Source: Candidatus Algichlamydia australiensis
GTDB taxonomy: Bacteria; Chlamydiota; Chlamydiia; Chlamydiales; JAJFMI01
Length of the DNA: 64,000 nucleotides
Assembly: GCA_033977065.1 (NCBI GenBank)
Contig: JAXCHI010000003.1
Span: 628,875 to 692,874 of the forward strand
Reading direction: 5' to 3'
Part shown: positions 12,001 through 15,000 of the stretch, in pieces
Layout of the letters: each line of letters begins with the position of its first letter
Position numbering within the stretch: the first letter of the stretch is position 1
Position numbers: made by a program

Positions 12001-15000
12001 TTAAGAGAGACCTTTACTTCAGGGTTAATATGAACGGTAAACATCTCTTTCTTTTCTTTATCATCGAAAATAGTGAGGCCAACCTCATGCGCTAGTTCTA
12101 GTAATATTTCTTTCATTTTGAATAGACTTTTGAATTTACTTCTTCTATATGTTGGATAGAGAATTTGGAGATATTATGGAAGATGAGTTTAAGAAAATTT
12201 TGAAATTTTTTGATATGCCGATGGAAGAGAAGGCAGATAAACTCGATTCAGTTTTTGAAGAGACTTCCGTTTTTTTAGAGCGATTTAAGCATGTATTTGA
12301 GACAGGAACGCCTGAGGAAAAAAAGGCGATGATCGAAAAAGTACTTGAGCTGCAATCGCGGTTAAAGGGCGAAATGAAGCAACTAACAGAGGCTTCAGGG
12401 CTCACAGAAGAGCAAATTATGCAATTTGCGACAAACCCCAAAAATTTTAAAGAGGGGCAGTGGGACTCAATTGAATCGTCTCGAAAAAAGATTGAGGGAC
12501 AGGCGAAAGATATCGCAAAAAATCTTCGCAAAGAGTTTGGTGGCAACAAGGATGAGGGCAGTGACGATGATGATAAGCCCCCATCAGCAGGTGGCGGCAA
12601 GAAGGGTTGGATTCCTGGCTAGTACTTCGTAACAGAAATTTTTAGCATTATTTTTACGTCAAAGCCTCGGGATTGAACTATCGAAAATCACCTCGTATTT
12701 GATTAATACTAGGTGACTTGCGATAGCCCAATCGCGAGAGCTTTCACGTTAAAAAGAATAGTAAAAATTTCTGTTACAGAGTACTAGTACTTTGTAACAG
12801 AAAAATTTTATTATCTAATTTAAAAAAACAGCCAATAGAGCGCATCGCGCGTTCATTCCCCACCCTCCACTTCGTTTCGGGTAGGGCCCCTTTCGCGTCG
12901 CTTGCGCGGCTGTTTTTTTTGTTTTGTAGAAAATTTTGTATGATCTAGACAGCGTCGTTAAATCCACGTGGTCACCTTATTTTGCACATTTGGGCTTCAC
13001 TTTTACGTTTTATAAGAGTTGGGGTTCTAGCAGGTTTTCCTGGGATAATTCATCGACAATAAGGTGAGTAGGAGTGTCGGGAAGATTTTTTAATTCTTTT
13101 TTTAGAAAGGTGGGAATAAGATGGATTTTGTTTAATTGGTCTAAGTCAAACCATTTATACCTTAATGTAGTTTTCTCGTCTGAAAACTCTTCGGTTCCAA
13201 TACCTTCCTTTTGAAAGTAGATAGGGGAATCCTTTTGAAGGTGTACTAGATAGTATAAAACAAGGTCATGATGGTTAATGTTTTTAGCAGAAAAGTGGTA
13301 TAAGTCTTCTGTAAACCATAGCAGTCGATCAATAATAGGAACTTCACCAAGCTCTTCATAAATTTCTCTTTTTAAAGCTGTTTCAGAAGTTTCAAAAATT
13401 CCTGCTTTCCCTCCGGGAGTATACCAAAAATCAAAACGGTCTTCTTTAGAGAGTGTTTTCGAATGAACTTTCGTCGAGTTTTTGGATTATTTTGGCCGAT
13501 TTTTGGACTCAATTTAAGAGGGGTAATATCACCTTACGGATATGACCCTCTTAAATTGAGCCGAAAACTCGGCTCAAAAGAACCGAAAAATCGACTGAAT
13601 TTTAATTCGAAGACACTCTCCTAACCAAAAGAATTTTATTCTCGTTAATAATAATTGACGCAACGCGATATCGAAAAGCACCATCTTTGCTTTTAATATG
13701 AATATCTCGAGGCTGCGACATTGAATTTTAGCTTGCTTCTTCTTTTACAATTTCTGGATCAGCGTTTTCTGTTACACACTCTTTTGTGATGGTGATCTCT
13801 TTGATTGTAGGATCAGATGGTGTCTTGTACATCAAGTCAATGAGAAGACTTTCAACCATCATACGTAGAGCGCGCGCACCTGTACCTGCGTCTTTTGCTT
13901 TTTTTGCGATGGCAAAGAGGGCTTCATCTGTAAAGTTTAGTTCTACATTATCCTCTTTAAAGAGAGATTTGTACTGGGAGATGATCGCATTTTTCGGTTT
14001 TGTAAGAATTTCAACGAGATCTTCATGTGTAAGTTCTGCAAAGTGTGTAATGCTGTTGAAACGCCCGATAAATTCAGGGATTATTCCGAACTGGACAAGG
14101 TCAGAAGTCTCTACTTGTGAAAGAAGGTAGCTGCTCTCGTTGGGATCGAGATGTCGACTCTCTTCTAAGTCAAAGCCGATGACGCCTTTTCCCAGGCGTT
14201 TGGCAATGATTTTATCCAAGTTAACAAAAGCTCCACCCACGATAAATAGAATGTTTTCTGTATTGATTTTCAAATACTCTTGATTGGGGTGCTTGCGGCC
14301 TCCTTTTGGGGGGACATTGGCAACAGTTCCTTCAACAATTTTAAGAAGGGCTTGCTGCACGCCTTCACCAGAAACATCACGAGTGATAGAGACGTTAGAG
14401 GTTGTTTTGCGCAGTTTATCAATTTCATCAATATAGATAATACCGTGTTCAGCCCAGCTCACATCGTATTCTGCATTTTGCAAAAGGCGGAGGATAATAT
14501 TTTCGACATCTTCACCCACGTAGCCTGCTTCTGTAAGAGTCGTTGCATCAGCGATTGCAAAAGGAACATCCAAAATTTGCGCTAGTGTGCGTGCAATTAA
14601 TGTCTTCCCTGAGCCGGTGGGTCCAAGGAGGAGCACGTTCGACTTTGAGTACTCGACTTCGCGGTTTTCTTGCATGGCGCGAATGCGTTTGTAGTGATTA
14701 TAGACGGAGACAGAAATAGTGCGTTTTGCATCCTCTTGACCAATGATATACTTATCAAGTTGATCTTTGATCTCTTGTGGCTTGATTACCTTCAATTTAT
14801 GCTTTGAAGGTTTTTTCATGACGATGTCCATACAAAGACGCACACATTTGTCACAAATATAGCAATTCGGTCCGGATATTAATTTTTCTACAATATTTTC
14901 TGCTCGTCCGCAAAAGGAGCAAGCGGGCTTTTGTTTGTTCATGGGGTAGTAGCTAATTCTACGGGTTCAACAACTTTATCGATAATTCCTAAAGGTCCAT

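Follow-up and report, generated by a model that had tools for sequence, protein, structure and literature searches.

The window, a 64,000-nucleotide stretch of DNA, comes from a MAG of Candidatus Algichlamydia australiensis (Simkaniaceae), a chlamydial symbiont. Ca. Algichlamydia australiensis is a newly found symbiont of coral-associated algae. Within the window, the gap between a 157-aa gene and a Nudix gene on the opposite strand consists of non-coding mini-transposons inserted next to and into each other. The features of this locus, which holds the first of two copies of a composite element, are the following:

12149..12622, + strand: 157-aa gene, adjoining the T3SS genes CesT and CdsD (both by Pfam)
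12622..12784, no strand: MITE-A, a 163-bp hairpin MITE with ends GTACTTCGTAACAG / CTGTTACAGAGTAC
12771..12800, no strand: junction palindrome of copy 1, CTGTTACAGAGTAC-TA-GTACTTTGTAACAG, made of the MITE-A end, a shared TA and the end of the composite element
12787..12821, no strand: MITE-A-type terminal segment of the composite element, copy 1 (28/34 positions identical to copy 2)
12822..12920, no strand: module, short form, consisting of A7, an 84-bp GC-rich hairpin (closing stem P0 and hairpin P1) and T8
12945..13006, no strand: MITE-B-type diverged half, copy 1, starting at CTAG, with the end sequence GACAGCGTCGTTAAA
13010..13721, - strand: Nudix gene, split by a third hairpin MITE at ~13449-13629 (from translation and the inverted repeat)

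The TAG stop codon of the 157-aa gene (12620-12622) sits within the CTAG target at 12619-12622. The sequence-only reading of this DNA had taken the right-hand neighbour for the end of a Nudix gene. The identity of the gene is correct, but it is not intact, as translation places the third MITE inside it; its C-terminal part reads through to a TAA stop at 13010-13012, and the Logan contig L002 ends inside the repeat that splits it. In total, the window contains at least three MITE families, which fill gene gaps and split one gene.

All sequence features described in the earlier reading lie where it placed them, among them the hairpin element of 163 bp at 12622-12784. An inverted-repeat search recovered arms of at least 38 nt with 87% complementarity, and the arms pair over their whole length: folded as single-stranded DNA, the entire element reaches -51.4 kcal/mol (z = -13.5). 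It contains no ORF of note. The flanking TA dinucleotides (12620-12621 and 12785-12786) each lie inside a CTAG, giving the layout C-TA-[G...C]-TA-G. The element is thus small and non-coding, with terminal inverted repeats and a target-site duplication, as is typical of MITEs. These flanks fit a TA duplication in CTAG and a 4-bp CTAG duplication equally well, and the MITE-B copies are likewise flanked by TA. The end sequence GTACTYYGTAACAG occurs five times without mismatch in the window, only at the two composite loci; with two mismatches allowed, there are 8 matches in the window versus 2.2 expected. A family related to MITE-A is present in the relatives L005, L011 and L013. No autonomous element with a DDE transposase and TIRs that match lies in the window; for the MAG as a whole, 11 transposases have been reported (PMC11317633).

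The composite element meets MITE-A head to head at a TA, as had been suggested, and the resulting palindrome at 12771-12800 is predicted to form a hairpin of -19.4 kcal/mol (z = -6.8). The palindrome would result from reuse of the regenerated CTAG at which the two elements abut. To the right of the GC-rich core, 12945-13006 shows 73% identity to 17218-17276, 25072-25130 and 38254-38312 in blastn searches, and by this similarity it represents one half, now diverged, of an element from a second MITE family. Both blastn and nhmmer find a single other copy of the composite element in the window, at 46188-46586, in inverted orientation between fic and asnS; this agrees with the one further copy placed at 46190-46587 by the earlier reading. 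The features of copy 2, together with a site in the window that is occupied in relatives, are:

42843..42885, no strand: empty orthologous site, filled by the module-bearing composite in L006 and by a plain MITE in L005 (from flank alignment and the conserved C-terminus ...NLCSA*)
46188..46216, no strand: copy 2 remnant of the inner right arm of MITE-A (exact 23-mer common to 12643-12665; blastn)
46218..46280, no strand: copy 2 MITE-B-type half, homologous to 12945-13006 (blastn, alignment)
46302..46536, + strand: module, long form, consisting of A8-CAGCC, hairpins P1, P2 and P3, then GGCTG-T9
46385..46518, no strand: segment of 134 nt with P2 and P3, absent from copy 1 (alignment of copies)
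46557..46586, no strand: copy 2 junction palindrome, in which 46573-46586 is a solitary 14-nt MITE-A end

The MITE-A remnant of copy 2 abuts and overlaps the fic stop codon (TAG, 46188-46190). At the other side, the palindrome nearly identical to that of copy 1 recurs at 46557-46586. Its solitary MITE-A end lies 7 nt from the asnS stop codon (46594-46596), and the Logan contig L001 ends just beyond the palindrome.

The module bracketed by A and T runs occurs in two forms. In the short form, A7 (12822-12828) and T8 (12913-12920) enclose the 84 bp from CAGCC to GGCTG (12829-12912). When both strands of this core were folded, each was found to be stable (-39.4 kcal/mol, z = -4.9, and -45.1 kcal/mol, z = -5.2), as the earlier reading had anticipated. 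The full form has ~235 nt and comprises a closing helix (A-run and CAGCC paired with GGCUG and U-run) around three hairpins; in copy 2 it folds to -105.8 kcal/mol (z = -8.1) on the + strand and to -80.4 kcal/mol (z = -4.7) on the - strand. The 84-bp core is a deletion derivative because copy 2 holds 134 extra nt inside it. Consequently, the idea that the 84-bp core is the basic unit is not borne out: it has been reduced from a four-helix module of ~235 nt by the loss of 134 nt. At the edges of this segment lie imperfect direct repeats, GCCAATAGAG / GCCATCGAG (minus-strand reading). Tracts of U8-9 are found on both strands of both window copies, and on each of these strands the CAGCC/GGCUG stem is directly followed by a U7-9 tract.

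The module is better conserved than its surroundings. The block from the A-run to the T-run is identical at 97/99 positions (98%) between the window copies, while the flanks are identical at 28/34 and 71/88 positions (81-82%; Fisher p = 6e-5), and the edges of the conserved block coincide with the A and T tracts. A homolog of the long form was found in a relative (L006:14141-14372, and likewise throughout L006-L009), with 74% identity to the window module. Across the Algichlamydia and L006 lineages, the 53 pairs of a consensus structure built from the same sequences that were used for pair counting are 98.7% paired, and 7 of the 53 show compensatory double changes (0-3 in slid-partner controls), including a flip from A-U to U-A within the A-run/U-run helix. 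P2 and P3 are the best-conserved parts of the module between species, and P2 holds the long invariant stretches AGTGCTTTGCACGG and CATGCCAAGATGAA. The view of the core as a folding unit under constraint, with a T-rich tract on each strand, is supported. Since almost all module pairs are Watson-Crick (104 of 106 consensus cells), either strand can fold, with nearly equal consensus energies of -48.6 and -45.8. An assignment of the strand by G-U pairs fails, the consensus being strand-symmetric. The L006 copy shows no strand asymmetry in folding, and as a whole it folds no better than shuffled sequence (z = -0.6 and -1.8).

Comparison with relatives bears on the mobility of these repeats. One such comparison concerns a conserved 100-aa gene: at its stop codon there are 37 nt and no insert in the window, whereas the same site holds a 170-bp plain MITE in L005 and a 420-bp composite with the module, in opposite orientation, in L006-L009. 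Each of these inserts has CTAG at its borders. The position immediately downstream of asnS lacks such an element in all five of the sampled lineages of relatives, and the breaks of short-read contigs fall exactly within the repeats. The empty and filled orthologous sites, together with the contig breaks, back the earlier proposal of mobile repeats, and comparison at this level supports the classification of the elements as mobile MITE-type repeats. Further MITE-A-type copies, and no further module copy, were found in ~110 kb from relatives (L010-L019); no additional module copy appeared in the ~270 kb examined.

The anatomy is very probably that of a pile-up of non-autonomous transposons with the target TA within CTAG, containing a core derived by deletion. 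Each insertion would recreate CTAG at both ends, allowing later insertions to join head-to-head at the termini, and the CTAG regenerated in this way would therefore give the head-to-head GTAC-TA-GTAC palindrome. The second element would be a MITE-A derivative carrying the cargo module and a nested, truncated MITE-B-type half. Copy 1 would have lost P2 and P3 by a 134-nt deletion between imperfect direct repeats of 9-10 nt.

As to what the module does, the explanation that we consider best overall, and to which we give about an even chance of being correct, is a MITE-borne two-way terminator or 3'-end hairpin. More tentatively, and with somewhat less confidence than that, we suggest from the predicted structure of the module that it works as RNA, terminating transcription intrinsically in both directions and/or protecting 3' ends as a hairpin. 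A transcript of either strand would fold into a GC-rich structure in which the closing stem is directly followed by the U tract, with the upstream A-run pairing with this tract. As a stem and U tract would be present on either strand, this proposal has polymerases that come from the gene on either side being halted there, or their transcripts capped. The MITE would spread the module, and copies landing between gene ends would be kept. Both intact window copies sit between convergent gene ends, and the A-stem-T form is shared by strong native terminator-like sites of the window. The L006 copy occupies what is a 37-nt gene junction in the window; in keeping with the proposal, its closing stem on the co-directional strand is weakened, with 3 pairs in the GC region versus 5, and the U tract is interrupted (UUCUUAUU).

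The architecture of a bidirectional intrinsic terminator, claimed by the sequence-only reading, is recovered in part: the A and T tracts, the GC-rich stem and the fold on both strands are there, but there is no compact hairpin, as the stem beside the U tract encloses 74 nt in the short form and 208 nt in the long form. Local hairpins at the U tracts have only 5 bp (~-7 kcal/mol), are no better than in shuffled sequence and are not conserved in L006. The placement between convergent genes holds for both window copies but not for the relative, in which the module-bearing copy of L006 lies between tandem genes (two of three copies convergent). A positional bias is not assessable with only three independent module copies known, and a convergent bias would be explained equally well by TAG stop codons supplying CTAG targets, combined with selection against insertions in genes.

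Termination needs neither a four-helix junction nor the long invariant stretches of P2, and copy 1 does without P2 and P3. The excess of architecture over what termination requires is among the observations favouring a gene for a non-coding RNA carried by the MITE: a structured transcript of ~230 nt and four helices, made from one strand, ending at the U tract and having a function of its own, for example in protein binding or regulation, the short form being dead or reduced. P2 is conserved in sequence between species and shows compensatory changes, and there is no conserved ORF; the + strand of copy 2 folds much better than the - strand, and on this strand G exceeds C (31% vs 20%). However, the upstream flank is not alignable between lineages and has no conserved promoter, no promoter-like site was found in 12000-13800, and a consensus nearly without G-U pairs, folding equally on both strands, is atypical of a single-strand RNA. 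The L006 copy also shows no asymmetry between strands and has a degraded U tract, copy 1 lacks P2/P3 and yet its retained part is 98% conserved, and there is no Rfam match. We therefore think an RNA gene unlikely as an account of the module. It is similarly improbable, in our estimate, that the long form (46302-46536; L006:14141-14372) is an undescribed four-helix RNA of ~230 nt, spread by mini-transposons as a mobile RNA gene in Simkaniaceae symbionts, with a role beyond termination and with the 84-bp core as its truncated version.

The module could also have no function, being a GC-rich palindromic piece of a parent insertion sequence (for example, a transposase-gene terminator or a subterminal structure) conserved by recent gene conversion and by hairpin-templated correction of quasi-palindromes. 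In every copy the module lies ~45 nt from one MITE terminus, as would be expected for a transposon-end leftover, its strand-symmetric Watson-Crick pairs are what templated inverted-repeat repair would give, the copy number is low and the L006 copy looks partly decayed. For such a relic, though, gene conversion would need to have ended precisely at the A and T tracts, where the 98% block is sharply bounded, and to have preserved the deletion, and a segment of 60% GC would have to persist in a genome of 42% GC and across species, with pairing kept in four helices. We give this account a low probability. The strand-symmetric Watson-Crick pairing would suit a DNA-level cis element as well, that is, a hairpin or cruciform for transposition, replication or recombination of a MITE subfamily, or a platform for a host factor; the module is associated with MITE ends in two lineages with differing terminal sequences. 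Nevertheless, MITE-A is mobile even where it lacks the module (L005, L013), A/T tracts with a GC-rich stem have no known role in TA-targeting transposition, and the loops are unusually purine-rich, suggesting a single-stranded, RNA-like reading. A DNA-level role is highly improbable.

Several other candidates were rejected. A known RNA family is ruled out by the Rfam results: covariance models at the gathering threshold identified only two tRNAs in the whole window, and searches of both loci and L006 with E up to 10 gave chance microRNA and snoRNA matches far below gathering scores, so that the check proposed for the two loci returned no family. An IS200/IS605-type palindrome element with a guide RNA (subterminal palindrome, TTAC motif) was dropped because of the true TIRs and TA/CTAG flanks. 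The junction strands of 0, 5, 4 and 5 nt do not fit a hammerhead or other small ribozyme, and Rfam reports none. A small protein or toxin is rejected as the region is missing from copy 1 and the ATG frame shows no conservation; at the amino-acid level the open frames of copy 2 and L006 are 41% identical, the value that a neutral nucleotide identity of 74% would give. Searches for more distant copies were negative: a 20-mer from the core had no match among GTDB genomes and one chance match in metagenomes, in a high-GC coding region; a scan for the junction palindrome matched only a Firmicutes MAG with similar but unrelated mini elements; pattern scans of viral contigs and plasmids recovered nothing, nor did a query with a spurious 96-aa ORF across the core.

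In Neisseria, the Correia elements (CREE/NEMIS) are reported to influence both termination and the processing of mRNA. Like the present elements, they are small TIR-bounded MITEs (~100-160 bp) with a TA target duplication, intergenic positions and long transcript hairpins. However, they share no sequence similarity, belong to another phylum and have no separate GC-rich multi-helix cargo, the TIR hairpin itself being active. With the ends GTACTYYGTAACAG and a chlamydial host in place of the Correia TIR and a Neisseria host, the likeness is functional only. IS630 targets CTAG and duplicates TA, and MITEs of the IS630/Tc1-mariner type (RUP, Nezha) resemble ours in the C-TA-[element]-TA-G flanks, the regenerated CTAG and the nesting or abutting of termini, although a 4-bp CTAG duplication of the IS5/IS427 type fits equally and the GTACTYYGTAACAG ends are unmatched among described IS. 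With bidirectional intrinsic terminators the module shares a GC-rich stem bracketed by A/T tracts, folding on both strands and location between convergent genes (here for 2/3 copies); it differs in enclosing a structure of 74-208 nt instead of a 3-8-nt loop, in being carried by a transposon and in its activity being a candidate one. The left-end stem-loop of IS200 is reported to be a two-way terminator that blocks impinging transcription. It resembles the module in being a GC-rich hairpin, in its subterminal place close to one terminus of a mobile element and in terminating in both directions (as predicted here), but it is a simple hairpin, and IS200 itself is autonomous, has an HUH transposase and lacks both TIRs and a TA duplication.

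MITEs are, to our knowledge, barely described in environmental chlamydiae. A MITE of Porphyromonas gingivalis contains an internal minisatellite (PMC4596501), and Coxiella has QMITEs (PMC5896051). These and the BOX elements are MITE scaffolds with extra modules or a contribution to small RNAs, whereas the present module is a single four-helix unit conserved across species in different MITE bodies. A conserved folding module is an unusual cargo for such elements.

The MITEs of the window bear on the genome plasticity of Ca. Algichlamydia australiensis. The window copies and the copy of the relative define a sequence and a structure for use in searches and tests. Should the module prove to terminate transcription in both directions, this would be a clear example of finished transcription boundaries being spread by a transposon, in a genome whose sampled 60 kb contains no more canonical terminator-like sites than shuffled sequence; if it is an RNA with its own function, it would represent a new RNA class having a built-in means of spreading.

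The composite repeat occurs twice in the window (GC content 42.3%), whose AsnS and ClpX proteins are 100% identical to those of the metagenome-assembled genome (MAG) of Candidatus Algichlamydia australiensis. This organism belongs to the Simkaniaceae and lives in symbiosis with the dinoflagellate Cladocopium; the MAG comprises 1.8 Mb in seven contigs, with 11 transposases reported (PMC11317633). The sequence-only reading had listed a single further copy within the window, and our search found no others.

Setting of copy 1, which carries the 84-bp core, and of copy 2
12620-12622: TAG stop of a 157-aa gene, left of copy 1, beside the type III secretion genes CesT and CdsD
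13010-13012, minus strand: TAA stop of the Nudix gene, right of copy 1; the gene is split by another hairpin repeat
46188-46190 and 46594-46596: stop codons of fic and asnS, respectively, with copy 2 inverted between them

The 163-bp hairpin at 12622-12784 (MITE-A) is indeed near-perfect, with a single-stranded DNA fold of -51.4 kcal/mol (z = -13.5). The end motif GTACTYYGTAACAG that it shares with the second element has five exact occurrences in the window, confined to the loci of the two copies, and the head-to-head palindrome is present at 12771-12800, with a counterpart at 46557-46586. The MITE-A layout, C-TA-[G...C]-TA-G, points to a TA inside CTAG as the target, as in IS630; the flanks fit a 4-bp CTAG duplication equally well. 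Whichever duplication applies, each insertion would regenerate CTAG at both element ends (CTAG at 12619, 12784 and 46570), so that elements come to abut head-to-head at TA and form the palindrome. Two stop codons coincide with MITE termini: the TAG of the 157-aa gene consists of the TA duplication and the first base of MITE-A, and the fic TAG falls within what is left of a decayed MITE-A arm in copy 2, which means that the element may have supplied the final codons of fic. In an unrelated phylum, mini elements of the Firmicutes MAG UBA5324 (contig L003, from DHRA01000063.1, at 6300-6530) have very similar ends (GTACTCYGTAAAC) and likewise abut head-to-head at TA. The resemblance could mean that a transposon group with GTACT... 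termini is widespread; the 8 kb examined of that contig showed no transposase.

In the 84-bp core of the second element, A7 (12822-12828) and T8 (12913-12920) flank CAGCC...GGCTG as originally described, and the core folds on each strand (z ~ -5). Alignment of the copies places 134 extra nucleotides (46385-46518) within the core of copy 2, bounded by imperfect direct repeats GCCAATAGAG and GCCATCGAG, so the 84-bp core is an internally deleted form. In the full module (46302-46536), a predicted closing helix, P0 (A8-CAGCC with GGCUG-U9), encloses three hairpins, P1-P3, with folding energies of -105.8 kcal/mol (z = -8.1) on the plus strand versus -80.4 kcal/mol (z = -4.7) on the other. The segment that adjoins the core on the right (12945-13006; 46218-46280 in copy 2) is a diverged half of a MITE-B-type family, and the far end of copy 2 keeps part of the MITE-A inner right arm. 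The second element is thus a mosaic derived from MITE-A, in which a cargo module is accompanied by a truncated MITE-B-type element nested within it. The two window copies arose by duplication of the whole mosaic.

Other repeats are present in the window.

Further repeats in the window
13449-13629: third hairpin MITE family (arms 13466-13522 and 13546-13602), interrupting the Nudix gene
17217-17383, 24966-25131 and 38253-38418: three 99%-identical 166-bp hairpin copies of MITE-B, TA-flanked, with ends GATAGCGTCGTCAAAAG
27525-27642: three tandem 35-nt units (TAATTCGGACAAAAA...), spaced 41-42 nt
62761-63994: tandem array of at least five units, period 234 nt, 64-87% identical to the reference unit, extending to the window end

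The near-identity of its copies suggests that MITE-B was recently active; tRNA genes lie near two of them (tRNA-Gly, 16925-16996; tRNA-Arg, 38658-38733). The N-terminal 39 codons of the Nudix gene (13602-13721) are cut off from the C-terminal frame, which is otherwise intact and ends at 13010, and one short-read contig (L002) terminates within the splitting repeat. In the 35-nt units, T runs follow TGTCCGAATTA...TAATTCGGACA hairpins, an arrangement that is terminator-like on the minus strand. The 234-nt array is probably a repeat-containing coding region.

Direct evidence of mobility comes from relatives (AsnS identity 89%), in which one orthologous site, downstream of the stop of a conserved 100-aa gene ending ...NLCSA*, is found in different states.

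States of the site after the 100-aa gene
Window: 37 nt, insert-free
L005, a relative with a plain MITE: 170-bp MITE of MITE-A type
L006-L009, a relative lineage: 420-bp composite with the long module, in opposite orientation

CTAG borders every insert at this site. Just downstream of asnS, no such element was found in five relative lineages; downstream of clpX, relatives carry other MITEs. In contig L012 (GCA_003232615.1, 4036-4254), the orthologous gap between clpX and the ortholog of the 157-aa gene is taken up by a long inverted-repeat element of another kind (AATCTCGACTTTGTACATTTTTTCG...CGAAAAAATGTACAAAGTCGAGAT), and in L011 and L013 yet other inverted repeats separate the 150-aa ortholog of this gene from its neighbour. 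MITEs gather at this intergenic location across the clade. Short-read contigs of Ca. Algichlamydia australiensis itself terminate within the repeats. The anatomy and mobility described here are well supported and very likely correct.

Between the window copies, the block from A run to T run is identical at 97 of 99 positions, versus 28/34 in the left flank and 71/88 in the right (Fisher p = 6e-5). Identity of the module to the L006 lineage is ~74%. In an end-anchored alignment of the window copies and this lineage, 53 consensus pairs are 98.7% paired and seven, across P0, P1 and P2, show compensatory double changes (slid-partner controls, 0-3), among them an A-U to U-A flip within the A-run/U-run helix of P0; the consensus derives from the same few sequences as the pair counts (three known module copies, two independent lineages). 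The module might, with low probability, be an inert relic whose similarity is maintained by gene conversion or templated repair: the whole L006 copy folds no better than shuffled sequence, with a weakened closing stem and co-directional U tract; against this reading stand the sharp edges of the conserved block at the A and T tracts and the pairing kept in four separate helices across species. The consensus pairs are nearly all Watson-Crick (G-U in 2 of 106 cells) and consensus energies are similar per strand (-48.6 vs -45.8), so the fold is available to either strand, or in DNA; that the module is a DNA-level cis element is highly improbable.

A terminator function is tentatively assigned. In its favour, a GC-rich stem between an A tract and a U tract is found on both strands, the pairing is symmetric with respect to strand, the edges of the conserved block coincide with the A and T tracts, and the intact copies are located where convergent genes end, the degraded copy inside a tandem gene pair. 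On the other side, the stem adjacent to the U tract encloses an extensive folded domain in place of a small loop, and local hairpins beside the U tracts are weak. Of the mobile, portable terminator first proposed, mobility and the tract-stem layout stand. A scan of 60 kb of the window showed no enrichment of canonical terminator-like sites; the few strong ones are of A-stem-T form. Termination also leaves the strong interspecies conservation of the P2 sequence unexplained. It is unlikely that the module is a MITE-borne non-coding RNA. No Rfam family matches, and the module contains no conserved ORF. Searches of viral contigs and plasmids found nothing, and a core 20-mer and the palindrome, scanned against collections of genomes and metagenomes, had chance or unrelated matches only.

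TA-targeting and terminator-like MITEs, such as Correia elements, are already known, and the Simkaniaceae families are new members of this kind. We know of no description of a conserved multi-helix cargo module common to differing MITE bodies in two species. If the putative terminator function holds, the MITE-carried module would act as an intrinsic terminator in both directions or as a hairpin that protects transcript 3' ends.
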